In this document: one piece after another, positions 4,375-52,086 of the stretch | Numbering within the stretch: the stretch's first letter is position 1 | Layout: every line of letters begins with the position of its first letter | Assembly (NCBI GenBank): GCA_045531205.1 | Contig: JAZSDN010000050.1 | Coordinates: forward strand, 6,407-70,406 | Direction: 5' to 3' | DNA: 64,000 nt | Source of the DNA: Clostridia bacterium | GTDB lineage: Bacteria > Bacillota > Clostridia > UMGS1883 > UMGS1540 | Made by a program: the position numbers and the translations under genes | Notes under the pieces: generated by a model | The model's database searches: none | What the model saw: the letters and a program-made list of their open reading frames with translations, nothing else | What the model was told of the DNA's origin: nothing

Positions 4375-5592
4375 ATGGCAAAAGAAAAAATAGTTTTAGC
4401 ATACTCTGGCGGACTTGATACATCAATTATCATTCCCTGGCTCCACGAACATTACGATTGTGAAGTAATTTGTGTTTGTGGTGATGTTGGACAAGGTAAA
4501 GAAACAGACGGTCTTGAAGAACGTGCTCTTAAAGCAGGTGCTTCAAAGCTTTACATAGAAGATTTGCGTGATGAATACATCCGTGACTTTATCTACCCCA
4601 CTTTAAAAGCAGGTGCTGTATACGAAGGCAAATATCTCCTTGGTACATCTCACGCACGTCCTATCATTGCAAAGAGACTTGTTGAAATTGCAAAGGCTGA
4701 AGGCGCAACTGCAATCTGCCACGGCGCAACAGGTAAAGGTAACGATCAGGTTAGATTTGAGCTTACAATTAAAGCTTTAGCACCCGAAATGAAAATAATT
4801 GCTCCCTGGCGTACATGGGAACTTAAATCACGTGAAGAAGAAATTGATTATGCAATTGCTCACAATATTGAAGTTCCTGTAACAAAAGAAGATATGTATT
4901 CACGCGACAGAAACATCTGGCATATCAGCCACGAAGGCATGGACCTTGAAGATCCTGAAAATATGCCCCAGTACGATTCACTTCTTAAGCTTTCAAATCC
5001 CGTTGATAAAACTCCTGATGATAAGAAGTTTATCACAATTGATTTTGAAAAGGGTGTTCCCGTAAGCATCGACGGCAAAAAAATGGAACCCATCGAACTT
5101 GTTGAAACTCTTAATAAAATCGGTGGTGAATACGGCATAGGTATAGCTGATATTGTAGAAGACCGTCTTGTTGGAATGAAATCCCGTGGTGTATACGAAA
5201 CTCCCGGTGGTACAATTCTTTATTACGCTCACAACGAACTTGAATACCTTTGTCTTGACAGACAGACTCAGGAATTCAAGCGTCACGTTGGCATAAAGTT
5301 CTCGGAACTTGTTTACGACGGACTTTGGTTTACACCTTTGCGTGAAGCTCTTTCTGCATTTGTTGATTCTACACAGGAAACTGTAACAGGTTCAGTAAAA
5401 CTTATGCTTTATAAAGGTAATATTTATTCAGCAGGTGCTAAATCCGATTACTCACTTTACAACGAAAATATCGCAAGCTTTGGCGACAGTAAAGAACTTT
5501 ACAGCCATAAAGATTCAGAAGGATTTATAAACCTTTTTGGCTTACCGCTTAAAGTTCGTGCTCTTATGAACAAAAATAACGAGGAGAAATAA
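4375..5592 (+). CDS. argG: Argininosuccinate synthase
   Basis: 405 aa. [12 protein letters not shown]-binding motif and full-length ArgG-like sequence. Confidence 0.97.
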
Positions 5593-36211: not shown

Positions 36212-37264
36212 GTGAAAGATTTTTTAAAACGCAAAGACGTCGTATTTTCTTTTAAAAGATATTTTATCGACGCCTTGGGAAGTATGGCACAGGGTCTTTT
36301 TGCCTCTTTGCTTATTGGTACAATTATAGGAACTATTGGCTCACAGCTTCATATTGAGGCACTTGTAACGGTGTCAAACTATGCAAAAGCCGCAACAGGT
36401 CCCGCAATGGCAATAGCTATAGGTGCCGCTTTAAACTCCCCTCCACTTGTTTTGTTTTCGCTTGTAACAGTTGGTCTTGCCGCAAATGAGCTTGGCGGTG
36501 CAGGCGGTCCTTTAGCCGTTTTGTTTATGACTATAATAAGTGCTGAATGCGGAAAGCTTGTAAGCAAAGAAACCAAAATAGATATTATTGTTACACCTCT
36601 TGTTACAATATGTGTTGGTGTTTTGCTTTCTGTTTTGTGTGCTAAATATATAGGTCTTGCAGCATCATGGGTTGGCAATGCAATTATGTGGGCAACAGAG
36701 CTTCATCCTTTTATAATGGGCATAATAATTTCCGTTGTAGTAGGTATTGCCCTTACATTACCTATAAGCAGTGCCGCAATATGCGCAGCACTTGGTCTTA
36801 CAGGGCTTGCAGGCGGTGCAGCTTTAGCAGGTTGTTGTGCCAACATGATAGGTTTTGCTGTAATGAGTTTTAAAGAAAATGGATGGGGCGGATTTTTTGC
36901 GCAAGGAATAGGCACAAGTATGCTCCAGATGGGAAACATTGTTAAGAATCCTAAAATTTGGATCCCTCCCATTATAGCCTCTGCAATAACAGGTCCTTTG
37001 GCAACATGCGTTTTTGGTTTACAAATGAACGGTGCCGCAGTTTCTTCAGGAATGGGTACTTGCGGTCTTGTTGGTCAGATAGGTGTTTATACAGGTTGGT
37101 TAAACGATATTGCGCAAGGACTTAAAGCTTCGGTTACTTTCTTTGACTGGGCCGGACTTATACTTATATCCTTTATACTCCCTGCAATTATTACATATTT
37201 GTTTGGTATTTTGTGCAGAAAAATCGGCTGGATAAAAGAAAACGATTTAAAACTTGATTTATAA
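36212..37264 (+). CDS. PTS EIIC-like (PTS_EIIC_2 type) membrane protein, orphan
   Basis: 350 aa, polytopic and glycine/alanine-rich (…ISSAAICAALGLTGLAGGAALAGCCANMIGF…). GTG start. No EIIA, EIIB or sugar-catabolic partner is adjacent. Confidence 0.5.
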   Translation: MKDFLKRKDVVFSFKRYFIDALGSMAQGLFASLLIGTIIGTIGSQLHIEALVTVSNYAKAATGPAMAIAIGAALNSPPLVLFSLVTVGLAANELGGAGGPLAVLFMTIISAECGKLVSKETKIDIIVTPLVTICVGVLLSVLCAKYIGLAASWVGNAIMWATELHPFIMGIIISVVVGIALTLPISSAAICAALGLTGLAGGAALAGCCANMIGFAVMSFKENGWGGFFAQGIGTSMLQMGNIVKNPKIWIPPIIASAITGPLATCVFGLQMNGAAVSSGMGTCGLVGQIGVYTGWLNDIAQGLKASVTFFDWAGLILISFILPAIITYLFGILCRKIGWIKENDLKLDL

Positions 37265-40207: not shown

Positions 40208-40216
40208 TTTACAAAA

Positions 40217-40251
40217 AAGAGCTGTAAAAAATTATTTTTTTACAGCTCTTT
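40217..40251. terminator. Bidirectional rho-independent terminator (trkH on one side, epimerase operon on the other)
   Basis: AAGAGCTGTAAAAA-ATTAT-TTTTTACAGCTCTT with flanking A and T runs. Confidence 0.7.
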
Positions 40252-40262
40252 TCTTATATCTT

Positions 40263-41147
40263 TTAATAATTCATATATTTTTTCAACATATTCTTTTCAA
40301 AATTCAACAGATATTTTGCTTCTTCGTCAATTCTTTTTTCCGAAATGGAATCAATTAAATTGCGGTATACATGTATATCCCTGCCTACTTCTCCTCCTTC
40401 CATAACAAACGGTTCTGAGACTATTCTACCTCTATAGTTTATATCGGCAAGAGCTTTAAATATCTCGTCCCAATCAAGATGTCCTCTTCCAGGTGCTGTA
40501 CGATTATTTTCACCTGTATGAAAACTTGTAAGTTTATCTCCCACAAGTCTTATTGCATCACCTATATTATTTTCTTCAATATTCATATGATATGTGTCAA
40601 GAAGCACACCAATATTTGGGCTATCTATTTCTTCTGTATACATAAGAGCTTCTGCTGCAGTGTTAATAAGACAAGTTTCAAAACGGTTAACAGCTTCAAC
40701 ACAGTATGTAACTCCATTATCTTCGGCAGTTTTGATAATTTCTTTCATACTTTTAATGCTTTGTTCCCAATATGGACGTTTATCCCCCTGATAATTATCT
40801 GGAGTCCCCCATCCTGCATAGCTTACACCAGACAGTAATGTGCCATTCATAAACCCTATTCTTTCAACTATTCTTTTTAAATAATCAACTCCGCCAAGTC
40901 TTATTTTTTCATTCAGAGAGGATACATCATAATTTCTGTCAAGGCCAAGGCTGTATGTTAGTTCAATATTATATTCTTCGGCTAACTTAACTAAATCTTT
41001 CATGTGTTCTTTACTCATTTCAAGCAAAGGTTGTGCCTGAAATTCAAGAACATCAAACCCTATCTCGGATGCCTTTTTTATATATTTTTTATGGTCAGCA
41101 TCCCAGTTTTTCTCCCAAAAATTCATAAAAATACCAAACTTATTCAT
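40263..41147 (-). CDS. Ketose 3-epimerase (D-psicose/D-tagatose 3-epimerase family, xylose-isomerase-like TIM barrel)
   Basis: 294 aa. N-terminus MNKFGIFMNFWEKNWDADHKKYIKKASEIGFDVLEF parallels the DTE/DPE family N-terminus (…GIYYxYWExxWxxDxxxYIxKxxxLGFDxLE…). ...VEAVNRFE..., ...LLDTYHMNIEE... and ...VSEPF... metal-ligand regions are present. Confidence 0.8.
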   Translation of the reverse strand: MNKFGIFMNFWEKNWDADHKKYIKKASEIGFDVLEFQAQPLLEMSKEHMKDLVKLAEEYNIELTYSLGLDRNYDVSSLNEKIRLGGVDYLKRIVERIGFMNGTLLSGVSYAGWGTPDNYQGDKRPYWEQSIKSMKEIIKTAEDNGVTYCVEAVNRFETCLINTAAEALMYTEEIDSPNIGVLLDTYHMNIEENNIGDAIRLVGDKLTSFHTGENNRTAPGRGHLDWDEIFKALADINYRGRIVSEPFVMEGGEVGRDIHVYRNLIDSISEKRIDEEAKYLLNFEKNMLKKYMNY

Positions 41148-41163
41148 TTTATCTTACTCCTTA

Positions 41164-42564
41164 TTATAAAACATCTATATCGTATCCAAGATATTTCACA
41201 AGCGCTTCCTTCACACATTCTGACCATTCTCCTTTTGCAATGGCAACATGGTGTTTGTATCCGTTTTCGCACATATACTTAAATACATTTTTAAGATTAT
41301 CTTTTTCAAAAACAATACCTGTTCCAAAAAACTCTTTGTCAAACTTATCTTCTGTCAATGTGCCATTAGTTGTAAATCCATAAAGTTTTCCATTTTCGGT
41401 TTTAATGCTTGCAACTGTAACCTTTCCTGATTTTATTTTTCCGTTAAGAATTCCAACTCCGGTTCCTTCTCCGTAAGATTTTTTAAACATAAGATGTTCA
41501 TTTATAAAAGTATCATTTTCAAAGAATGAATTTGGAACTGCCGAGCAATGAAACATAATGACTTTATTTTCTTCATTTCCGTAATTATTGTTTACATCCA
41601 AAAGCATAACAGGATGATTTGAGGCTAAAGTTAACGCATACATCATAACAGCATTGTTAACATCAAGTTCACATGCGGCAGGTATTCCTTTTTCATTCAT
41701 ATCACTCAAAATAAGACAAGGTGCTATATTATACTGTGTAACAAATTCGTCCCAGCATCTTACTGCCATAGCATCAAGAGAATAGTCCTTAACCAATTTA
41801 TCTACTGCTACACCAAGCTTTGCAATATTTGTAAGCTTTTCTTCAGAATAACTTCCAAAAGATGTAACAGAAGAATAATATCTTTTTTTCTCATCTAATT
41901 CGGTTTTGTCAACTCTTTCCATTAAATCAAATATATACGATAAATCTATTGATTCAACATTTATATTTTTGTTTTGCAATGCCACTTCATCTGTACGTAC
42001 AGTTTTAAAAGCAGTTGTTCTAGCTCCTAACGTTCCAATGTTAACATTTCTCATTCCTTTAACAATTCTGCATATTGCAGCAAAGTTTTTTAAGTCTTTT
42101 GCAAAAGCTTCATCAAGAGGTGAAACTGCCATTTTTTCTGTTAAAGTGAATTTAATATTGCATTGACGCAAAAGATTACACATAGCAAATTTTCCGCACA
42201 CAGCATCTCTTCTTTGTGAAAAATCCATCTTCCCTATTTCGTCAGGATATGCTTGAACTAAAATTGGTACACTTACATTTTTAAATGCTTCTGCCGCACC
42301 ATTTTCATCCGAAAAGTTCGGCATACATAAAATTATACCGTCAAACCTTCCCTTGTTATTTTCTAAAAAATCTTTGAACAAACGTCCTTCTTCTCTTGTT
42401 TCTACCGCACCGTATCTTGTTAAATTTTTATCCATACAAATATAACTAAAACCATTATCGACTACAGCTTTTATCATTTCTTCTCTGGCTTTCGCTATAA
42501 CTTCTCCTGGAAAAAAACCTCTGTTTCCAAAAAATAATGCGAATGTAATTTCTATTTTCCTCAA
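41164..42564 (-). CDS. L-fucose/L-arabinose isomerase family protein (COG2407-type, substrate unknown)
   Basis: 466 aa. Family-typical features (...GARTTAFKTVR..., ...ACELDVNNAVMM..., ...MFHCSAVP...). Forms an operon with the epimerase. Confidence 0.72.
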   Translation of the reverse strand: MRKIEITFALFFGNRGFFPGEVIAKAREEMIKAVVDNGFSYICMDKNLTRYGAVETREEGRLFKDFLENNKGRFDGIILCMPNFSDENGAAEAFKNVSVPILVQAYPDEIGKMDFSQRRDAVCGKFAMCNLLRQCNIKFTLTEKMAVSPLDEAFAKDLKNFAAICRIVKGMRNVNIGTLGARTTAFKTVRTDEVALQNKNINVESIDLSYIFDLMERVDKTELDEKKRYYSSVTSFGSYSEEKLTNIAKLGVAVDKLVKDYSLDAMAVRCWDEFVTQYNIAPCLILSDMNEKGIPAACELDVNNAVMMYALTLASNHPVMLLDVNNNYGNEENKVIMFHCSAVPNSFFENDTFINEHLMFKKSYGEGTGVGILNGKIKSGKVTVASIKTENGKLYGFTTNGTLTEDKFDKEFFGTGIVFEKDNLKNVFKYMCENGYKHHVAIAKGEWSECVKEALVKYLGYDIDVL

Positions 42565-42602
42565 ATTTCTCCCTCCTTTTTATATATCTTACATTGCCTT
42601 TT

Positions 42603-42618
42603 TCACTATTTATAGTGA
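42603..42618. promoter_or_regulatory. Perfect 16-bp palindrome in the divergent promoter region
   Basis: TCACTATTTATAGTGA (7-bp arms, 2-bp centre), between the isomerase operon start (42564) and the PocR-AraC gene start (42717). Confidence 0.3.
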
Positions 42619-42716
42619 CTTTCTTGTTAAAAATAAGCACTATCTTACTTTTTTATTTTGCTAATATTGATTTTATTTGTTTTATTGTGTTAATATAAAA
42701 ACAAGGAGTGATATAT

Positions 42717-43565
42717 ATGATCTATAGTTTTGATAAAATAAAACTGCATAATATGTTTAAAGATTTTTACACTCTTTTAAAAATAACAATAAGTATTTGG
42801 GACTCGGATTTTAATCAGTTACTTTTTTATCCAAATCCCATGCCTTCAATATGTGCAAAAATAAAATCGTCGCCAACAGGCAAACAAAAATGTCTGGAAT
42901 CTGATATAAACGCCTGCAAAAAAGCTGCTTTAATAAAAAAACCTTATACCTTTACATGTCATGCAGGTCTTGTTGATACTGCTTTTCCGATTTATTATAA
43001 CGACGAAATAATTGCCTACATTATGTTTGGACAACTGCGCGATGTAGAAAATAAATTATCTACCATAGAAAATGTAAAAATTTTATGTAAGAAATATGGT
43101 TTAGATGAAAAAAGTATAGATAAATATTATAATGATTTACCGTTGCTTAATCATAATCAAATAAATGCCATTATACATCTATTTGAAATGTGTATTCCTT
43201 ATTTTTACACAAGTGAAGCGATAAAATTTGAAGAAAATATGCTTGCTTCAGAAATAGATAACTATATATCGCAAAACCTTTCTTCCTCTTTATCTCTTGA
43301 ACAATTAACTAAAAAATTTATGATTTCGACAAACGAATTATATCAGATATCACACAAATTTTTTGGCACTTCAATAAAAGACTATATAATTCAAAAAAGA
43401 ATTATCAAAGCGAAACACTATCTTGCAACAACTAATTTACCTGTTTCTGAAATAAGTATTAAAATTGGATATAATGATTACAACTATTTTATCCGCACCT
43501 TTAAAAATCGAACAGGGTACACTCCGCTTTCATACAGAAAAAATTTTCCGCTTAACACTTTGTAA
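42717..43565 (+). CDS. AraC family transcriptional regulator with an N-terminal PocR sensory domain
   Basis: The track ORF starts at the GTG at 42708. The ATG at 42717 has AAGGAG 8 nt upstream. PocR-like Cys pattern (...PSICAKIKSSPTGKQKCLESDINACKKA...TFTCHAGL...) and a C-terminal HTH_AraC (...IGYNDYNYFIRTFKNRTGYTPLSYRK). Confidence 0.85.
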   Translation: MIYSFDKIKLHNMFKDFYTLLKITISIWDSDFNQLLFYPNPMPSICAKIKSSPTGKQKCLESDINACKKAALIKKPYTFTCHAGLVDTAFPIYYNDEIIAYIMFGQLRDVENKLSTIENVKILCKKYGLDEKSIDKYYNDLPLLNHNQINAIIHLFEMCIPYFYTSEAIKFEENMLASEIDNYISQNLSSSLSLEQLTKKFMISTNELYQISHKFFGTSIKDYIIQKRIIKAKHYLATTNLPVSEISIKIGYNDYNYFIRTFKNRTGYTPLSYRKNFPLNTL

Positions 43566-43572
43566 AACATAT

Positions 43573-43605
43573 AAAAACTCACCTATATTTTGTAGGTGAG
43601 TTTTT
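43573..43605. terminator. Bidirectional terminator between convergent regulator and activase genes
   Basis: AAAAACTCACCTA-TATTTTG-TAGGTGAGTTTTT. Confidence 0.7.
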
Positions 43606-43664
43606 AATCTTTATACATAATAACATTTTATCTTACTTTTCTATATATGTAATAAGACAACAGG

Positions 43665-44573
43665 TTAAACAAAATAGCAGCTTATATTGCATTTTTCATT
43701 AAGTATTGAACAGATTTTTTTCATTTCGCCATCTGTTTGTGAGCTGTCTGCGAATTTCGTGTATTCTTTTCCTGCAATCTTATATTTTGACTCAGCAAGA
43801 TTGTTGTATTTTAATAATTCAATCTCTTTTATTCCTTTTCCGAAGGTTTTTATGATTTCAGCAAAGGCATAAATATCATCATCAGAATCATTCACTCCGG
43901 GTATTACAGGAATTCGTAAAATGATATTACTGTGTTTGTTTGATAATTTAGTGATATTTTCGATTATCAGTCTGTTGTCCTGCCCTGTAAATTTGCGATG
44001 TTTTTCGGAATTTGGAATTTTCAAATCAGCAAAGAACAAGTCTACAAAGGGTAACACCTCTTCAACCTTTTCCCAAGGAACGAAAAAAGCACTTTCAATT
44101 GCTGTGTGAATCCCATGTTCTTTACACATTCTTGTAACTTCTGCCACAAAGTCTGAATACAACAAACACTCTCCGCCCGAAAAGGTTACTCCTCCGCCTG
44201 AGGAAATATAATAGTGAGCGTCTTTTTTAATTTCTTCAAAAAGTTCCGGAGCAGTCTTTTCCTCACCACACAGGCTAAGTGCAAGCGAAGGACAGCTTAC
44301 CGCGCATTTGCCGCAAGCTGCGCAACCTTCGCGCAGAAAAGCCATATCATTTCCCAGTATTTTATGATGTTGTGGACAAAGCTCAATACATTTACCGCAA
44401 TGAATACATTTTGTAGGTATGTAAAGAATTTGCTTTTTTGAAGACAATGTTTCCGGATTATGACACCATTTGCATCTAAGGGCGCATCCTTTGAAATATA
44501 CAACTGTTCTGACGCCCGGTCCATCATGCAAAGAACCTCTTGATATATTTGTAATTGTTGCACTTACAGACAT
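43665..44573 (-). CDS. Glycyl-radical enzyme activating protein (radical SAM) with a two-ferredoxin-motif insert
   Basis: 302 aa. Radical SAM CALRCKWCHNPE, plus CIHCGKCIELCP and CAACGKCAVSCP. The start overlaps the stop of the upstream GRE by 10 nt. Confidence 0.92.
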   Translation of the reverse strand: MSVSATITNISRGSLHDGPGVRTVVYFKGCALRCKWCHNPETLSSKKQILYIPTKCIHCGKCIELCPQHHKILGNDMAFLREGCAACGKCAVSCPSLALSLCGEEKTAPELFEEIKKDAHYYISSGGGVTFSGGECLLYSDFVAEVTRMCKEHGIHTAIESAFFVPWEKVEEVLPFVDLFFADLKIPNSEKHRKFTGQDNRLIIENITKLSNKHSNIILRIPVIPGVNDSDDDIYAFAEIIKTFGKGIKEIELLKYNNLAESKYKIAGKEYTKFADSSQTDGEMKKICSILNEKCNISCYFV

Positions 44574-47200
44574 GAATGCTTTGTCCTTCCGATAATATGA
44601 TTCTGAAGTTCAGGAGAAAGCAGGTTAAATTTTTGACTGAATCCAGAAACTCTTACTGCAAGGTTATTATATTTTTCCGGATATTTTTGTGCATCAATAA
44701 GAGTGTCTGCATCAATGGTATTAAACTGTACATTTTCCAGACCTTTTTCGCTGCTTGCAATTAAAATATCCGCAAGCATGGGTATATTTTTGTCAGTAAA
44801 CAATTTTGGATCAACTTCAACAATTGCCGAAGTTGTACCCGGAGTGCGTTTGGTTGGCAGTTTAGCAATTGAGTTAAGCAAAGCTGTTAAGCCGTTAAAA
44901 TCACGTCCCTGCATTGGAGAAACACTATAAGCTATAATTTCGCCTTTGCGTCTTCCGTCAGGAGTTGCGGCACTTTCTCGTCCGTAGTCAACCATCCAAA
45001 GGAATGTAAATGGTTGTGCATGGAATGAAAGTCCGTATTTTTCAGACAATTCTTCAAGATAATCGCAAGCAGTATTTACTATATCAACCGCAATTGAGTC
45101 TACACTTTCAATATCATTACCAAATTTTGCAGCTTTATTTATAAATTCAAGCCTTATACTTTCATCCGGAAAATTGTTAACTAATATATCTTTTAATTCT
45201 TCAAGTGTATATTTTTGTTGTATGTACACAAATTCACGAATAACCTCAAGTGAGTCGGCAAGGTTTGGTATTCCGCCAAGCATAATTTGGTAATAATCAT
45301 ACTTCGCTCCTGCATCATTAAAGTCTTTTCCTGTTTCAATACAACCGTCTGTCAGTAACGACTTGTAAGGTCTTGGGCTGTTGATAACAGAACAATCCCT
45401 GTGTTTTTTTACAGAAGAACAGGTCAAATCAAGAATATGATAAATTTGTTTTTTGACCGAATCATAAAACTTGTTATAGGTGTCAAACGAATTAAGCTCA
45501 CCGGTTTTTACACCTGTGTTAAAATCAGGATACATCATACTGCTGCCGTTACATAGCACATACTCAACTGCTTTAAGCAAATTGGTTTCTCCTGTTACGG
45601 CATGAGGATTGGATTTTCCCGGTATAACAGTTTCAACACATCCAATTTGAGTGTAGTCGCAGGCATCCTCATAAGATATTCCTTTGCTTGTAAGTGCAGG
45701 AATCATTACATCATCATTAAAGAAGAACGGAACACCTTTCTGGACATGACCTACCACCTCAAGGGCACGTTTTATAAATTCCTTTTCCGTATTTTTTGAG
45801 TAACGCACTGACATGCAACGTATAAAATCAAGCTGTTCGGTAGCATCGAGCATCATATAAGAAAGTTCATTGACCTGACTGCTTCCATCGGGAGAAGTCC
45901 CGCCGACACACGACTGCTGAACATCGTAATTTAAGTATAGTTTAATCCACAAGCAGCATATCAGTTCAAAAGCATCTTCTTTTGTCAAAATGCCTTTTTC
46001 AATATCCGCTTTGTAATATGGATAAAGTATCTGATCAAGTCTGCCGAGTGAATTTGCGTTTATATGGTCCTCCCATGTGTTGATGATATGCGCAAACCAT
46101 AAAGACTGTACTGCTTCTCTGAAGTTTGAAGCAGGATTTTCGGGAACATTTTCACACGCACTTATAATATAATCCAAATCCTTTTCAAGATAAAGTTCGT
46201 CACCAGATTCTTTAATTCTTTGAGCTTCTTTTGCATATTTTTTGCCCATTTCACAAGCTGCTACGCAAATACTTTTCATTGAAGAATAAAGCGGATTTGT
46301 TCCGTTTTTCTTTTCGTGCGCTATAACTTCGTCAAGCAGGCCTTTAAACCCAAGCTTCAATACTTTTTCATAGTTTATTACACTGTGATTAGAGTCGGTA
46401 CATCTTCCTATTGCAGCCCATTCTCCGCACGAATCCTGCTCGTCTTTTGTAAGAATCGGCGATACATATTCAAGAAAATTAGGCTCTTGTTTAGTCAGCT
46501 CAAAGTATTTTTCCAAATCGCTATCACTGATACCATTTAATTTGGCTAACCTGCGATTTTCTTCCGTGTCATCAGGTGAAAACCATTCATCGTATTTAGA
46601 GTCAGGAAAATTAAAACCAACAATTAGTTCTCCAGGAATAATTACAGGAGTAAATTTATCTAAAACATTAATAGCTCTTGCCGCGCTGATTTCTGTATTC
46701 GAAAGATTCTTTTTTGCTGCTTCAGCCATCCCAATATAAGAGTAAACTTTATTTTGCATACAATAATAATCTTCATAGTCGTTTGTGCCAACAACTAAGC
46801 GACGCAAAGCTTCACATCTGTCAGTCAGAGAATACATAGTAATTCTTTTCCTTTCATAATAAAATTGAGTTTCTTTTGCTTGCTTTTTATATTCTCTGGG
46901 CAAGCAACCGAATTCTGCCAAAAAGGCTTTGTTGAACCCGCCTAACGTTTCATATCCATAAGCTATTGCTACATCGGTTATTTTTTTGCCAGAGATTATA
47001 TCAATTGCAGCCAATTGGAGACGGTAATGTCGAACATATTTTACAAAAGACTTTCCGGTATATTTATGAAATTTCGAGCAAAAATGCCATTTAGAATACC
47101 CAAACTGATTTGCAACATCTGATAGGTCTAAACGCTTCTCGATATTATTATGAATATACTTTAAAACTTCATACACAACACCATCTCCTTTCATTTTCAT
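44564..47200 (-). CDS. Fusion protein: N-terminal AraC-type HTH DNA-binding domain plus a full glycyl radical enzyme (C-x-E thiyl-loop class)
   Basis: One uninterrupted 878-codon ORF. Residues about 10-110 are HTH_AraC (…LSDVANQFGYSKWHFCSKFHKYTGKSFVKYVRHYRL…ITDVAIAYGYETLGGFNKAFLAEFGCLPREYKK). From M122 there is a GRE core with IGCVETVIPGK and C-terminal RVSGFSQKFNLLSPELQNHIIGRTKH. The exact start is uncertain (ATG at 47200, or GTG at 47176 after AAAGGAG). Confidence 0.88.
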   Translation of the reverse strand: MKMKGDGVVYEVLKYIHNNIEKRLDLSDVANQFGYSKWHFCSKFHKYTGKSFVKYVRHYRLQLAAIDIISGKKITDVAIAYGYETLGGFNKAFLAEFGCLPREYKKQAKETQFYYERKRITMYSLTDRCEALRRLVVGTNDYEDYYCMQNKVYSYIGMAEAAKKNLSNTEISAARAINVLDKFTPVIIPGELIVGFNFPDSKYDEWFSPDDTEENRRLAKLNGISDSDLEKYFELTKQEPNFLEYVSPILTKDEQDSCGEWAAIGRCTDSNHSVINYEKVLKLGFKGLLDEVIAHEKKNGTNPLYSSMKSICVAACEMGKKYAKEAQRIKESGDELYLEKDLDYIISACENVPENPASNFREAVQSLWFAHIINTWEDHINANSLGRLDQILYPYYKADIEKGILTKEDAFELICCLWIKLYLNYDVQQSCVGGTSPDGSSQVNELSYMMLDATEQLDFIRCMSVRYSKNTEKEFIKRALEVVGHVQKGVPFFFNDDVMIPALTSKGISYEDACDYTQIGCVETVIPGKSNPHAVTGETNLLKAVEYVLCNGSSMMYPDFNTGVKTGELNSFDTYNKFYDSVKKQIYHILDLTCSSVKKHRDCSVINSPRPYKSLLTDGCIETGKDFNDAGAKYDYYQIMLGGIPNLADSLEVIREFVYIQQKYTLEELKDILVNNFPDESIRLEFINKAAKFGNDIESVDSIAVDIVNTACDYLEELSEKYGLSFHAQPFTFLWMVDYGRESAATPDGRRKGEIIAYSVSPMQGRDFNGLTALLNSIAKLPTKRTPGTTSAIVEVDPKLFTDKNIPMLADILIASSEKGLENVQFNTIDADTLIDAQKYPEKYNNLAVRVSGFSQKFNLLSPELQNHIIGRTKHSCL

Positions 47201-47254
47201 TATAGCAAAACCTAAATAATATTTCTACTCCAAAATTGTGTTTTTCAAAATGTT

Positions 47255-47286
47255 AAAAATGCTCGCCTGAAACAACAGACGAGCAT
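47255..47286 (-). terminator. Terminator hairpin belonging to the spoIVB 3' remnant
   Basis: The minus strand reads ATGCTCGTCTG-TTGTTT-CAGGCGAGCAT followed by TTTTTAA. This is an 11-bp stem with one G-U pair, in the same position relative to the remnant stop codon as the terminator of the intact spoIVB. Confidence 0.55.
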
Positions 47287-47291
47287 TCATC

Positions 47292-47417
47292 TTAATTTTT
47301 CTCTGATTCTGCTAACATATTTTCAATAAATATTCCATACCCACGCGTGGGATCGTTTACGAATACGTGAGTGACTGCACCGATGAGCTTGCTATTTTGG
47401 ACAATGGGGCTGCCCGA
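47292..47417 (-). pseudogene. Remnant of a spoIVB 3' end (last 41 codons plus stop), orphaned
   Basis: Minus-strand translation is [41 protein letters not shown], against intact SpoIVB ...[42 protein letters not shown] at 51115-51243. Homology stops abruptly upstream of the SGSP codons, and there is no start codon or N-terminal part. Confidence 0.8.
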
Positions 47418-47448
47418 TAGGTGTGATGTCAATATGGGACAACAAATT

Positions 47449-48282
47449 CTACGCTTTTTTAACTAATATATTTGTTTTTGCTCTGATATAATTAATTATT
47501 TCATTAATCTGTTCATCAGTTTGCATTGAAATTTCAAGCGGTTGTTTTCCTAATGCCAAGTACTTATTTTCGCCAAAAGCGTGATAAGGCTCTATTTCAA
47601 TCCCTATGATTGATGTAAGTGTATTTGCAAGTTCGCATATTTTGTCATAGTTTTCTTTTCTGTCATTATAGCCGGGAATTACAGGACAACGGAGAATAAT
47701 ATCTTTTTTTAACTCATTTAATAAATATAAGTTTTTCTTTATTAAAATATTGTCCACTCCTGTATAGGTCTTATGTAATTCAGGATTACTTTCCTTGAAA
47801 TCAAACAAAAACAAATCGGTGTATTCTGCAATTTGTTTTATTTTATCGCTATCGGCAAAGCCACAGGTTTCTATAGCAGTGTGCAGGTCATTTTCTTTAG
47901 CTTTTTTTAAAATGTCCAATGCAAACTCAAACTGAAACAACGGCTCACCACCCGAAAGTGTAATTCCGCCACCGGAATTTTTATAAAATTCATAGTCTTT
48001 CATAACTTCGTCAATAACATAATCTGACAATACTGTTTTTCCGCAGATTTCCTTCGCATTATTAAAACATATAAAATCCGAATTGTCAGCTGTTAAGTTT
48101 CGACATCTTCCACAGCCCGAACATTTATCCGGATAAAACATGATTTGTTTTTCTTGCGTCTGACTTTCAGGATTATGACACCATTCACAACGCAAAGGAC
48201 AGCCTTTGAAAAAAACAGTTGTGCGTATTCCCGGACCATCATTAACACAAAATTTTTGAATGTTAAATATTTCACCGGTCAT
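47449..48282 (-). CDS. Glycyl-radical enzyme activating protein (radical SAM), reduced auxiliary-cluster insert
   Basis: 277 aa. [12 protein letters not shown] radical SAM motif and only one CxxCxxC (CSGCGRC) in the insert region. Starts 2 nt after the GRE stop. Confidence 0.9.
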
Positions 48283-48284
48283 TT

Positions 48285-50234
48285 TTATTTCTCCTGCACT
48301 GCTCGTTCAATTACAGCGTCCTGAATTTTTTCATTCAATGTTGTAAACTGTGTACTGTAACCACTGATTTTAACAATAATATCCGTGTGTTCTGACGGAT
48401 TTTGTTTGGCTTCTTCTAACAATTTTGCATCTATAGTATTAACAGCAAGATGAAAACCGCCGGCTTCAAAAAATGTCTTTATTAGAGGTGTAAGTACACT
48501 GCTTTTTTCAATATCTTTTTTATTCAAACTTATCATAACAGGGCATCCGTTGGGAAAATATTTGGCAGAGATATTTGCGCATGACATCAGAGTTGATGTT
48601 AAGGTGCTTTTGTGAGGCGTTGCGCAAGGCATCACTCCGTAGGATAACAGTTCTCCTTTTTTTCTTCCGTTAACCATTCCGCTACAATCCCGCTGCCATA
48701 TATCCGCAGTAAAACGAAACAGTGCCGGCGAAGAAAGAACATTATCATCTATAGGATATTTTTGAATTACTTTTCCTATAAACTCGGTTATATCTTTAGC
48801 TAACTGATTACTTTCTTCGCTGTTGGAACCGTAATAAGTTTTTAAGCCTGCTATTTTATTATATAAAGATACATCCTCAAAATCTTTTTCTGCCTGCATC
48901 CTTAGATTTTTAATTGTTGTATGATTTTCGTCAAATACAAGCCTTTTTATAGTGTAAATACTGTCAATTAAAATGCCGATTCCCAAGATATTTATGCCAA
49001 ACAGGTATTTTTCCCGGTTTAATACACAGTTTGCAAATGGTGATACTGCGTTTCTATCTTGATTTGCAATACTCTTAAATTCAGGAAGTAAAGAGTTTGC
49101 ATAATAAAATTCAAAATAATTTTTGTATGCATTAAGAAAGTCTTTGAAAGAAGAATAATCAGACTTTTGCTCCAAAAACTCTTTGAAGGAATCATATAGG
49201 TTAACGGCTGCGGCAACTGTGTTTGAAAACGAGCCTTGGGGAGCTGGTTCGTAACAGCCAACAATTCCGTAATCCATTGCTCTCTTATCATCAATTCCCA
49301 ATTTTTTTAAACCTTCAATAATAGTATCATCATTGAAATATGCCGGCATACCGCTTCCGTTTAAAACCAGCCGAGTTGCTTTATTTAAAACATCGGTACT
49401 TGTTATTTTTGATACTCTCAGGGCAATGGATGGCTGGCGCATACTGATTTGTGTTTGAGCTTCAATAAATAACGATGTCAATTCATTTTCAATATCTCCA
49501 CCCACGGTCAGCATGCACGACTCATCACCCTCGGAATTTTTTATGTAAAAGCACATAATAAGTTCTAACGCTTCTTCCGGCGTAAGAATACCTTTTTCGA
49601 TATCATTTTTATAATATGGATACAGGTATGAATCTGCTCTGCCTAAAGATATTGCAGCGCCGCCCGCTTCTGTATATAAAAAGCATTGAATAAACCATAC
49701 AAGCTGTAACGCCTGACGAAAACTCACAGGAGGGTTTTCCGATATGAATTCACAGTCATTTGCGATGTTTAAAAGTCTTTCTTTATCTTCATTCTGCGAT
49801 AAAACATAAGCTTTTCTTGCAGTGTCAGCATAATTTTTTATGTAATTTGAAAAAGCCTTTAACGTATTTACCAAAGCTGTTTTATTAGAGTTTTTATTGA
49901 CTTCATTTATTTTCCCTTTAATTCCTTTTTCCAAGAAATCCTGAAAATCTGCAATGAAGTGCCCTCTATTCTGAGGTTTTACAGTTTCGCCAAGAGACCT
50001 TTGCCATTGCCAATGCCAGTTTGTTCCTACAATGTATTCCTTTTCATAAATTTCGGTTGAAAAGTTTTCTGAAAAATACTGATAGAAACCACTGTATAAA
50101 AGCCCTTTATCTTCTTCAACGTTTTTGTTTGAAATATATTGCTGATAAAGATTACATAAATGCTTTTTGTGTTGCTCTCTTTTTTCTTCAAACATAGCAA
50201 GGTGCTGTTTTTTTAAAAAAATTGTGTTATTCAT
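48285..50234 (-). CDS. Short glycyl radical enzyme homologue (about 649 aa)
   Basis: The track ORF starts at the GTG at 50255. The ATG at 50234 (MNNTIFL...) follows GGAAAGGAG. Thiyl loop VGCYEPAPQG and C-terminal glycine loop IVKISGYSTQFTTLNEKIQDAVIERA. Shares DIEKGILTxEEAxELI and FNDD motifs with the upstream GRE. Confidence 0.85.
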   Translation of the reverse strand: MNNTIFLKKQHLAMFEEKREQHKKHLCNLYQQYISNKNVEEDKGLLYSGFYQYFSENFSTEIYEKEYIVGTNWHWQWQRSLGETVKPQNRGHFIADFQDFLEKGIKGKINEVNKNSNKTALVNTLKAFSNYIKNYADTARKAYVLSQNEDKERLLNIANDCEFISENPPVSFRQALQLVWFIQCFLYTEAGGAAISLGRADSYLYPYYKNDIEKGILTPEEALELIMCFYIKNSEGDESCMLTVGGDIENELTSLFIEAQTQISMRQPSIALRVSKITSTDVLNKATRLVLNGSGMPAYFNDDTIIEGLKKLGIDDKRAMDYGIVGCYEPAPQGSFSNTVAAAVNLYDSFKEFLEQKSDYSSFKDFLNAYKNYFEFYYANSLLPEFKSIANQDRNAVSPFANCVLNREKYLFGINILGIGILIDSIYTIKRLVFDENHTTIKNLRMQAEKDFEDVSLYNKIAGLKTYYGSNSEESNQLAKDITEFIGKVIQKYPIDDNVLSSPALFRFTADIWQRDCSGMVNGRKKGELLSYGVMPCATPHKSTLTSTLMSCANISAKYFPNGCPVMISLNKKDIEKSSVLTPLIKTFFEAGGFHLAVNTIDAKLLEEAKQNPSEHTDIIVKISGYSTQFTTLNEKIQDAVIERAVQEK

Positions 50235-51018
50235 AAATAACAAACTCCTTTCCACAATACCCTAAATTTGCCGAGATTTCAGCGGAAGCATTTCTTATTA
50301 GATCAAGTTTTTCATTAATTAAAGAGTCAATATCGTCATATAGCGTCAGGCTTGAAACACCTATAGTTGCCACCACATTTCCTGTATAGTCAAAAATAGG
50401 TACTGCAATACAAATTATGCCTTTGGCAAACTCTTCATTATCAATAGCAAAACCTGCTTTTTTTATCTTATAAGCTTCAATAATAAAACTATCAAAATCC
50501 GTAATGGTATTTTCTGTTCTTTTGTCAACCGGTATATTAAAGTAATTCTTTATCTCATCTGTATCTGAATAACTTAAAAGAATCTTACCGGGGGCAGAAC
50601 AGTTAAGTGGGTATTCTCCACCTATACACCCATTAATTCTGACTTCCTTTGTGGAATCATAATGCAAAAGATAAAGGACGTTTCTTTCGTTTTTAACCCC
50701 AAGATAGACAGAATCACCAAGCTCATTATTTAACTGTTCTATGTAAGGAGTTGCAATTTTTGCAATGCTGTTATTATTAACATAACCTGATATAAGTGAA
50801 AAGGGACGGAGCGTTAATCTGTATTTTTTTTGAGTATTATCACTCATATAAATCCAATTTTTCTCGAGCAAAGCTTCCAACACCCTTGAAACAGCATTTT
50901 TATTTATATTAAGAGCATTACTTATATCAGCAATTCCTATTTCAGAATTTTTACTTGCAAAAAATTCAATTATTTCCAAAGCGTAATCTACAGCAGGAGC
51001 TTTAGACAACTTTATCAC
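50227..51018 (-). CDS. IclR family transcriptional regulator
   Basis: 263 aa. N-terminal wHTH (...ALEIIEFFASKNSEIGIADISNALNINKNAVSRVLEALLEKNWI...) and a C-terminal IclR effector domain. The likely true start is the TTG at 51009, 6 nt after GAGGTG. The stop overlaps the GRE start by 8 nt. Confidence 0.9.
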   Translation of the reverse strand: MIKLSKAPAVDYALEIIEFFASKNSEIGIADISNALNINKNAVSRVLEALLEKNWIYMSDNTQKKYRLTLRPFSLISGYVNNNSIAKIATPYIEQLNNELGDSVYLGVKNERNVLYLLHYDSTKEVRINGCIGGEYPLNCSAPGKILLSYSDTDEIKNYFNIPVDKRTENTITDFDSFIIEAYKIKKAGFAIDNEEFAKGIICIAVPIFDYTGNVVATIGVSSLTLYDDIDSLINEKLDLIRNASAEISANLGYCGKEFVIYE

Positions 51019-51114: not shown

Positions 51115-52086
51115 TTATTTGTTTTTCTCTGCTTCAGTTAACATATTCTCTATAAATATCCCATAACCTCTTGTTGGATCATTCACAAATACGTGTGTCA
51201 CAGCTCCGATGAGCTTTCCGTTCTGAACTAAAGGTGACCCCGACATACCTTGGACAATTCCACCCGTTATCGAAAGAAGTTTTGGGTCTGTAACTTTTAT
51301 TATCATATTTTTATTTTCTTCATAATTTTTATTTAAAATCTTTTCAATTAAAACTGTATATTTTTGTACACCTTCTCCTAAAACATCCGCATATATAAAA
51401 GCATTTCCTTCCTTCACTTCGTCTGATGTTGAAGTAAAAACAGTTTCTCCTTCACTTTTTTTAAGCAGTGTTCCGAATAATCCGCTTTTTGAATTTTTGT
51501 TTATTATGCCACTTTTAACATTTAAAAAATCCCCTTGCAAACCACCGGGGCTCCCCTCTTTCCCTCTTATTACATACATATTTTCACAAAAACGTATATC
51601 GCCCGAATTTCCTGAAGGCATTATGCCTGTTTCTGTATCTTCTACCTTGTGCCCTAACGCAGCAAATTTTAAGGTTTCGGGTTCGATATAAGTTATAGTT
51701 CCTATCCCGGCTATACTGTCTCTTACCCATGCGCCTATTTTATATTTATAAGCATCGTCATAAAATACAGGTGTAACCTTTTTGGTTAAAATTTTATTTT
51801 CTCTCTTTATTCCTAAATTAAGATTTTTTCCTTCTGACTGTTCAACAAGCTTGCTGAATTCATCACTCTTTGATATCTTTTTGCCGTTTACTAAATAAAT
51901 TATATCTCCCTTTTTAATTCCTGATGCCTTGGCAGGAGATATATTTTTTCCATTTGAAACTATATCAGAAAATCCAACCACCAATACACCTTCAAAATAC
52001 ATGGATATTCCTATGGTGTTTCCTCCTAATATTACTTGTTTTGGTTCGCTCTCTTCTGTTGCTTCAATATTGTTTTGGCCGCACAA
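51115..52086 (-). CDS. spoIVB: SpoIVB peptidase (S55), stage IV sporulation signalling protease
   Basis: PDZ-like region (...GIKKGDIIYLVNGKKI...) and the serine protease motif GMSGSPL. The coordinates are the track ORF (TTG start, no SD). The reading frame stays open upstream to 52173 and encodes a signal/TM segment, so the true start is probably near 52157/52158 (see findings). Confidence 0.88.
   Translation of the reverse strand: MCGQNNIEATEESEPKQVILGGNTIGISMYFEGVLVVGFSDIVSNGKNISPAKASGIKKGDIIYLVNGKKISKSDEFSKLVEQSEGKNLNLGIKRENKILTKKVTPVFYDDAYKYKIGAWVRDSIAGIGTITYIEPETLKFAALGHKVEDTETGIMPSGNSGDIRFCENMYVIRGKEGSPGGLQGDFLNVKSGIINKNSKSGLFGTLLKKSEGETVFTSTSDEVKEGNAFIYADVLGEGVQKYTVLIEKILNKNYEENKNMIIKVTDPKLLSITGGIVQGMSGSPLVQNGKLIGAVTHVFVNDPTRGYGIFIENMLTEAEKNK

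Follow-up and report, generated by a model that had tools for sequence, protein, structure and literature searches.

A conserved three-gene cassette of gut Clostridia pairs a predicted ketose 3-epimerase with an uncharacterised AraA/FucI-like isomerase

Isomerases of the AraA and FucI type carry out the first step in AraC-family-controlled sugar operons (araBAD and fucPIKUR), where a kinase and then an aldolase or a 4-epimerase follow. Ketose 3-epimerases of the D-tagatose/D-psicose 3-epimerase (DTE/DPE) family are industrial enzymes for the low-calorie sweetener allulose, and we found no statement in the literature of a physiological pathway for them. An aldose isomerase and a ketose 3-epimerase are combined in 'Izumoring', a man-made in vitro interconversion of rare sugars. 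Here we describe a locus in a 64,000-nucleotide (nt) stretch of DNA from a Clostridia bacterium (contig JAZSDN010000050.1; the whole stretch is referred to as the window), in which the same two-enzyme logic occurs naturally, in a regulated operon that is conserved in many gut Clostridia. Positions 40263–43565 constitute an autonomous, conserved three-gene sugar-conversion cassette of gut Clostridia, composed of a regulator, an isomerase and an epimerase (Table 1). Its arrangement is a variant of the familiar AraC-controlled sugar operon, with a ketose 3-epimerase predicted to act on the free ketose instead of the kinase and its partners, and it is not described in the literature that we found. 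Searches on ketose 3-epimerase roles, a DPE–FucI operon, gut allulose use, DUF4432 and PocR returned no paper on the isomerase–epimerase pair or its regulator; one allulose paper that surfaced deals with AlsE, a different, phospho-sugar enzyme, and not with this system.

A preceding sequence-only reading had described a two-gene operon, encoding an isomerase of 466 residues and an epimerase of 294 residues, divergent from a regulator with a PocR sensory domain and an AraC helix-turn-helix (HTH). All the open reading frames (ORFs) that it named are present as stated in the ORF list of the window, and family matches bear out the description. The isomerase and epimerase genes are 16 nt apart, and 152 nt separate the isomerase from the divergent regulator. 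The isomerase start codon is TTG, preceded by a GGAGGGAG ribosome-binding site. For the regulator, the most likely start is ATG 42717, which is preceded by AAGGAG, and the resulting 282-residue form is the one found in the public protein collection. Because the genes are intact, the family matches strong and the synteny conserved, chance is not an issue. In a compositional test for a foreign island, the sugar genes (GC 0.28–0.34; GC at third codon positions 0.21–0.24) were not clearly different from housekeeping neighbors. A scan of the window found no tRNA genes, and a repeat search found no repeats flanking the cassette.

We then asked in which surroundings the three genes occur elsewhere. 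Using one genome per species and tblastn with the window proteins, we examined 80 isomerase loci, which include flanks of up to 10 kb in both directions and all come from gut or rumen Clostridia and related metagenome-assembled genomes. Of the 29 loci with an isomerase at least 52% identical to that of the window, about 25 have the epimerase gene directly after it. PocR-AraC homologs, 49–66% identical, are divergent from the isomerase in eight loci (L001, L008–L011, L018, L020 and L120). Blastn similarity to the three-gene loci L120, L001 and L008 is confined to about 40270–43570, ending at both gene ends, and a terminator hairpin lies at either end of the cassette. The closest relative of the cassette (isomerase 84% identical; L120–L125) keeps the three genes among quite different neighbors, namely NanA-like lyases, an AGE-family epimerase and BNR proteins.

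The identity of the second enzyme is the clearest. The epimerase matches the NCBIfam model NF051856 'D-psicose 3-epimerase' with 382.7 bits over residues 2–288 of 294, passing the equivalog cut-off of 300, and Pfam AP_endonuc_2, a xylose-isomerase-like TIM barrel, with 134.5 bits. Its alignments with the D-psicose 3-epimerase of Clostridium cellulolyticum (PDB 3VNI; 41% identity) and with another D-tagatose 3-epimerase (8XIV; 40%) contain no gaps. In the alignment to 3VNI, all metal and catalytic residues are kept: E151, D184, H210 and E245 correspond to metal-binding Glu150, Asp183, His209 and Glu244 in C. cellulolyticum numbering. Likewise, E157, H187 and R216 match the residues that recognize O1–O3 of the ketose (Glu156, His186 and Arg215). 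Substrate preference is set by the pocket around O4–O6, which in D-psicose-type enzymes is formed by Tyr6, Trp14, Gly65, Ala107, Trp112 and Phe246. Three of these are retained (W15, W113 and F247), whereas three differ: Y6F, G65S and A107V, that is, F7, S66 and V108 in the window protein. The predicted protein is a new member of the well-known DTE/DPE family of ketose 3-epimerases. With the characterized enzymes, including C. cellulolyticum 3VNI and Pseudomonas cichorii DTE (2QUL), it has in common the TIM-barrel family, 40–41% gapless identity, identical metal ligands and catalytic glutamates, and the O1–O3 residues; it differs in the lining of the O4–O6 pocket. Moreover, the characterized enzymes are industrial catalysts, whereas the gene described here belongs to a conserved operon that includes an isomerase partner and has a dedicated regulator.

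The isomerase is considerably more divergent. Its sole Pfam match is Fucose_iso_C (56.3 bits against a cut-off of 29.3; residues 337–464), and neither a sequence search (phmmer) nor a profile built from 45 sequences matched any PDB entry. An AlphaFold model was obtained with high scores (predicted local distance difference test 91.7, predicted template modeling (TM) score 0.92). Foldseek searches with this model returned L-arabinose isomerases as the best matches (TM 0.82, E = 7e-25 to 4R1O and 7CHL), which at 13–15% identity is a similarity at the level of fold only. The next-best folds were L-fucose/D-arabinose isomerases (FucI; TM 0.74), and identity across the AraA and FucI matches was 12–15%. 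The predicted fold and the Fucose_iso_C domain connect the isomerase to AraA/FucI, and its invariant acidic and histidine residues have an AraA-like spacing (below), whereas no sequence similarity to E. coli AraA or FucI could be detected. In particular, AraA models of Pfam and NCBIfam, including Pfam Arabinose_Isome, did not match the isomerase, and hhalign gave E. coli FucI a probability of 0.3% and no usable alignment. The N-terminal domains of FucI had no Pfam match in the 466-residue protein (canonical FucI has about 590 residues).

Invariant residues of the isomerase family are E299, D323, H339 and H438/H439, with spacings of 24, 16 and 99–100. The spacings between E306, E333, H350 and H450, the catalytic and metal tetrad of AraA, are similar (27, 17 and 100), and E299 stands opposite AraA E306 in an hhalign profile alignment, although the very low probability of that alignment makes it a hint only. 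By virtue of this AraA-like spacing, E299, D323, H339 and H438/H439 are candidate active-site residues. The nearest characterized family by profile is SftI (NF048012), matched over residues 64–453 with E = 1.8e-33, but the score of 116 bits is far under the cut-off of 700. SftI is the sulfoquinovose isomerase of the sulfo-transaldolase pathway, a FucI-like protein of roughly 440 residues from Firmicutes (PMC7491151). None of the sft partners (transaldolase, sulfolactaldehyde dehydrogenase/reductase, sulfoquinovosidase) occurs near the isomerase in the window or in its closer relatives, referred to below as clade A, and the same holds for adjoining araB and araD partners (kinase and 4-epimerase). 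Judged by sequence and predicted structure, the protein is a distinct, uncharacterized branch of the AraA/FucI superfamily, and not FucI, AraA or SftI in the strict sense. The isomerase belongs to a large family, with more than 5,000 relatives at E ≤ 0.001 among 8,000 candidates scored.

A neighbor-joining distance tree together with neighborhood clustering splits the isomerase family cleanly into two clades. Clade A includes the window and is the one linked to the epimerase. Clade B (L030–L080), with isomerases 45–50% identical to that of the window, never has the epimerase; instead, its loci encode an FGGY kinase (38 loci), a class II ketose-bisphosphate aldolase (32) and DUF4432 (27). Clade B isomerases also have a full-length PocR-like AraC regulator gene upstream, which in most loci is on the opposite strand. 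The FGGY kinase is nearest to xylulokinase, and the clade is widespread in Lachnospiraceae and other Clostridia. Clade B represents an apparently uncharacterized pathway in which the FucI-like isomerase is joined by this kinase, the class II aldolase, DUF4432 and the PocR-like AraC regulator. This is the classical isomerase–kinase–aldolase route; clade A has the epimerase instead of the kinase and the aldolase. The absence of a kinase, an aldolase and a transporter, which the sequence-only reading had found unusual, is real in the window and turns out to be a trait of the whole of clade A. Among the 90 nearest clade A neighbors in a Pfam census, transporters are few, and the 25 most frequent families listed include neither kinases nor aldolases.

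What does accumulate around clade A genes is glycosidases. The census counted seven GH36/Melibiase, six GH51 arabinofuranosidase, two GH127, two GH31 and two GH2 proteins (GH, glycoside hydrolase family), along with four LacI regulators. In addition, a 700-residue protein distantly related to GH27 beta-L-arabinopyranosidase is encoded within 8 kb of the isomerase in nine clade A loci, in most of which it directly flanks the isomerase–epimerase pair. Further neighbors include GH88 and GH4 proteins, esterases, phosphoesterases and ThuA-like proteins. Arabinose- and galactose-releasing glycosidases are the commonest neighbors, often within the same operon. This context, together with L-arabinose isomerases as the best fold matches, an AraA-like size and a spacing of invariant E/D/H/H residues that mirrors AraA, would fit an isomerase acting on L-arabinose or D-galactose released by GH51, GH127, GH27-like and GH36 enzymes. 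The epimerase would then convert L-ribulose to L-xylulose or D-tagatose to D-sorbose, as a form of arabinose or galactose handling other than AraBAD that possibly ends in a polyol electron sink. We regard this variant as unlikely, since reductases and kinases are not conserved in the vicinity, the Arabinose_Isome models of Pfam do not match, neither araB nor araD adjoins the pair, and no glycosidase adjoins the cassette in the window itself. Moreover, L-xylulose and D-sorbose are not, to our knowledge, entry points into metabolism in anaerobes.

Some of the same data could be taken to mean that the pair is not catabolic on free neutral sugars at all, and either runs backward to supply a surface glycan with a rare sugar or combines an IolO-like keto-acid/inosose epimerase with a sugar-acid isomerase. 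The second-best NCBIfam match of the epimerase is indeed 5-keto-L-gluconate epimerase IolO (137 bits), SftI as the nearest characterized relative of the isomerase takes a sulfonated sugar, and GH88, ThuA-like proteins and phosphoesterases are sometimes neighbors. However, the epimerase scores above the equivalog cut-off for D-psicose 3-epimerase and retains all of the residues that bind O1–O3 of the ketose, neither glycosyl- or nucleotidyltransferases nor iol genes are nearby, and an inducible, divergent AraC-type regulator in a glycosidase context is typical of catabolism. A role away from free neutral sugars is accordingly improbable.

Next, we considered the regulator. It matches Pfam PocR (PF10114) with 117.5 bits and HTH_18 (PF12833) with 65.5 bits, HTH_AraC being matched as well. 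PocR domains are classically tied to propanediol sensing, and Salmonella PocR, the regulator of pdu and cob genes, has the same fusion of a PocR sensory domain with an AraC HTH. Nevertheless, the score against the PocR equivalog NF047788 is 93.5 bits, short of the cut-off of 500, and no pdu or cob genes or microcompartment context were found in the window region scanned. The predicted protein shares the architecture of PocR without being the propanediol regulator. Full-length PocR-like AraC regulators occur in both isomerase clades, in plain sugar contexts with no pdu or glycyl radical enzyme (GRE) genes. Salmonella PocR controls pdu and cob genes, whereas the regulator of the window, like those in the two isomerase clades, keeps company with sugar genes. 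The sequence-only reading had taken the PocR domain as a sign of a link to diols; because full-length homologs accompany the isomerase family in sugar contexts without pdu or GRE genes, this argument is weak.

To look for a possible binding site, nine intergenic regions between PocR and isomerase genes were aligned, those of the window and of eight relatives. They contain a single conserved block, AAGAnAGTGCT(T)ATTTTT, followed by (C/T)ACTAT about 21–22 nt on. The box of the window, AAGATAGTGCTTATTTTT...(N)...CACTAT, lies upstream of a –10-like TAAGAT and can be read as two CTAT-type half-sites about 21–22 nt, or two helical turns, apart. Two half-sites spaced by two helical turns upstream of the –10 element are the typical layout of AraC-family activators. 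The box occurs once in the window, and is absent upstream of either GRE operon found there. Across the 80 loci, it is present upstream of the isomerase only in clade A loci with a divergent PocR gene, and is absent in clade A loci under glycosidase operons or LacI and in clade B. This distribution supports, but does not prove, control of the operon by the PocR-AraC protein through the candidate box. The divergent region also contains, on the regulator-proximal side, an AT-rich 17-nt direct repeat, TTTTATTTTGCTAATAT and TTTTATTGTGTTAATAT (42651–42667 and 42680–42696, 29 nt apart), which could be an autoregulatory site or a product of chance.

Immediately beyond its terminator, the regulator is convergent with an operon for a GRE activase and a GRE with an N-terminal AraC HTH (HTH-GRE), as the sequence-only reading had also recorded. 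That reading went further and proposed one anaerobic pathway, in which a rare sugar, deoxy-sugar or polyol is isomerized and epimerized, then attacked by a GRE that cleaves C–O or C–C bonds. In such a pathway, the HTH-GRE would cleave or dehydrate the converted compound and PocR would sense a diol-like intermediate. The two units do adjoin in the window with the regulator converging on the activase, PocR is classically linked to propanediol, and GH51 arabinofuranosidases occur beside both kinds of unit in other genomes, so that both may belong to plant-glycan degraders. Co-localization of the sugar and GRE genes in other genomes was therefore examined from both sides. No GRE or activase lies within 10 kb of the isomerase in any of the 80 loci. 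Conversely, none of 38 GRE loci that a metagenome scan with the HTH-GRE returned, at least nine of which extend 3–9 kb past the activase, contains the isomerase, the epimerase or a PocR regulator. The activase, on the other hand, follows the GRE in all of these loci in which the contig continues. A Pfam census of 92 GRE neighbors showed no recurrent partner. AP_endonuc_2 proteins appeared three times in this census, none of them an epimerase ortholog: the one in L094, encoded about 3 kb beyond the activase, is a distant TIM-barrel protein that scores 30 bits against the epimerase, and the other GRE neighbors had no meaningful score.

The closest relatives of each unit tell the same story. Three close relatives of the GRE (91–93% identity; L119, L129 and L130) have no sugar genes. 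L119 has an AraC gene and a GH51 gene upstream of the GRE and an unrelated gene downstream, whereas in L129 and L130 the GRE is preceded by an intact spoIVB and followed by the activase and a convergent cupin-type AraC regulator. Their DNA is 84–88% identical to the window only over 43656/43657–47399/47414, which corresponds to the activase, the GRE and a 3' fragment of spoIVB, so that similarity stops at the activase stop codon. The closest cassette relative, in turn, lacks a GRE. Furthermore, a bidirectional terminator stands between the units, the candidate PocR operator is missing upstream of both GRE operons, and the GRE has an AraC HTH of its own. Separation in all the other loci examined is the very outcome that the proposal had named as speaking against itself. 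A joint pathway is very improbable on these data, and a functional tie between the cassette and the adjacent GRE is not supported: among the loci examined, the two appear to be neighbors only in this genome.

The origin of the GRE unit can be traced further. The spoIVB remnant of the window is 84–87% identical at the nucleotide level to the last part of the intact spoIVB found ahead of the GRE in L129 and L130, whereas the SpoIVB proteins of these two loci are only 42–49% identical to the window's own SpoIVB. The remnant is a donor spoIVB tail carried along with the GRE unit, and therefore the GRE unit was probably acquired separately from the sugar cassette, together with the foreign fragment. 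The GRE/activase unit appears to have moved between distant Clostridia with this tail. The sequence-only reading had seen what looked like a single accessory island from the trkH terminator to the spoIVB remnant. Both landmarks are real, but what lies between trkH and the intact spoIVB is a patchwork of at least three independent units: 40263–43565, 43657–47432 and 47449–51018, the last of which that reading had not mentioned.

Table 1. Features of the cassette and its surroundings in the window
Feature	Position	Strand	Basis
Bidirectional terminator hairpin, trkH (+) and epimerase (–) convergent	40215–40252	both	Terminator scan: 17-pair stem, then T run; left border of cassette
Predicted ketose 3-epimerase (DTE/DPE family), 294 residues, operon gene 2	40263–41147	–	NF051856, Pfam AP_endonuc_2
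Predicted aldose–ketose isomerase, AraA/FucI superfamily, 466 residues, operon gene 1	41164–42564	–	Pfam Fucose_iso_C
Divergent control region between isomerase and regulator, 152 nt	42565–42716		Sequence; aligned with eight related intergenic regions
Candidate operator box	42612–42646	–	Conservation in aligned intergenic regions
PocR-sensor/AraC-HTH regulator, 282 residues from ATG 42717 (ORF opens at GTG 42708, 285 residues)	42717–43565	+	Pfam PocR, HTH_18
Bidirectional terminator hairpin, regulator (+) and GRE activase (–)	43572–43606	both	Terminator scan, both strands; right border of cassette
Neighbor outside the cassette: activase, HTH-GRE and spoIVB 3' remnant	43657–47432	–	Separately inherited unit (probable)
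GRE activase, 302 residues	43665–44573	–	ORF list, family match
HTH-GRE, 878 residues, N-terminal AraC HTH	44564–47200	–	ORF list, family match
spoIVB 3' remnant	47295–47432	–	46 codons, 80% identical to C-terminus of intact SpoIVB
Second activase/GRE/IclR unit	47449–51018	–	Between spoIVB remnant and intact spoIVB
Intact spoIVB	51115–52086	–	ORF, 323 residues as listed

Several further observations concern these neighbors. L130 carries a second spoIVB 3' fragment just after the activase (4776–4883, + strand; 36 residues, 89% identical to residues 281–316 of the window SpoIVB), and a GRE unit bracketed by spoIVB ends hints at repeated insertion at the 3' end of this gene. The intact SpoIVB ORF of the window has 323 residues, compared with 349–358 in L129 and L130; its true start may be further upstream, or its N-terminus may be shorter. 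The GRE of the second unit (656 residues) has no HTH and is about 26% identical to the first; it is accompanied by an activase of its own (277 residues, without the ferredoxin-like insert) and an IclR regulator, and its exact sequence is not in the protein collection. Many relatives of the HTH-GRE (L087–L089, L092–L094 and L100) do not have the fused N-terminal HTH, as matches begin at query residue 115–123. A number of these HTH-less relatives have a separate ORF of about 299 residues just upstream, and in L119 the fused HTH coexists with a separate AraC gene; fusion or splitting of the HTH may have occurred in the course of GRE evolution. The GRE ortholog of L129 (7601–9951), an NCBI metagenome-assembled genome, was called as two genes, of 212 residues with the HTH and 571 residues, with about 80 residues between them unmatched, and a frameshift or deletion, that is, a pseudogene, is possible. 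Finally, on the other side of the cassette, the gene directly ahead of trkA (36212–37264, + strand; GTG start) encodes a solitary PTS_EIIC_2-family membrane protein of 350 residues. It is not accompanied by adjoining genes for EIIA, EIIB or sugar enzymes; it is the candidate sugar permease nearest to the cassette, with trkA and trkH in between.

Taken together, the gene identities, the conserved residues and the synteny suggest a general mechanism that we consider reasonably probable: an inducible route from a free aldose through a 2-ketose to its 3-epimer, which leads into a common ketose. The PocR-AraC protein would sense the sugar or a related small polyol, and probably uses the conserved direct-repeat box to activate the divergent promoter. 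The isomerase, predicted to be metal-dependent, would turn the free, unphosphorylated aldose into the 2-ketose, and the DTE/DPE-type epimerase would invert C3 of this ketose. If flux runs in this direction, the product could be taken up by housekeeping kinases or phosphotransferase (PTS) systems, which would explain why clade A has no kinase, aldolase or dedicated transporter. The presence of a kinase and an aldolase in place of the epimerase in clade B would fit the epimerase being an alternative means of disposing of the ketose.

As to the sugar itself, 3-epimerization converts D-psicose to D-fructose, D-ribulose to D-xylulose and L-tagatose to L-sorbose, and such conversions are metabolically sensible. 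The chemically most sensible routes would run from D-allose or D-altrose through D-psicose to D-fructose, or from D-arabinose or D-ribose through D-ribulose to D-xylulose. Arabinose- and galactose-releasing neighbors in other genomes would point to a sugar derived from plant glycans. We tentatively propose that the cassette is a natural, phosphorylation-independent isomerize-then-3-epimerize route, by which an uncommon sugar of plant or dietary origin reaches fructose or xylulose in gut Clostridia; the choice of any single substrate is, at best, doubtful.

Several points weigh against this proposal. Substrate stereochemistry is not readable from homology when the nearest characterized relative of the isomerase, SftI, scores so far below its cut-off, and the three changes in the epimerase pocket relative to D-psicose enzymes do not reveal a preference either. 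The operator box is a candidate assigned by conservation. The linkage test covers about 10 kb of flanking sequence. Finally, the glycosidase context conflicts with the logic of a funnel to a common ketose: L-arabinose and D-galactose would lead to L-xylulose or D-sorbose, and neither of these is an obvious way into central metabolism. Because the glycosidase context and the funnel logic, which favors psicose or ribulose, disagree, no substrate can be deduced from the neighbors.

For the HTH-GRE, the negative linkage result means that it is best studied alone, with no sugar-derived substrate assigned to it from this neighbor; the data do not support the coupling to a radical enzyme, which was what made the earlier proposal most exciting. 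For the sugar genes, the conserved operon partner and the regulator offer a testable handle on the role that ketose 3-epimerases play in their hosts and on the use of allulose-like sugars by gut Clostridia. Should the isomerize-then-3-epimerize route be real, it would provide a physiological role for the DTE/DPE enzymes of industrial allulose production, assign a function to a third branch of the AraA/FucI superfamily that is structurally unsolved, and establish PocR domains as sensors of sugars. The cassette would be of greater interest if gut Clostridia turned out to use it as their natural route for allulose-like sugars.

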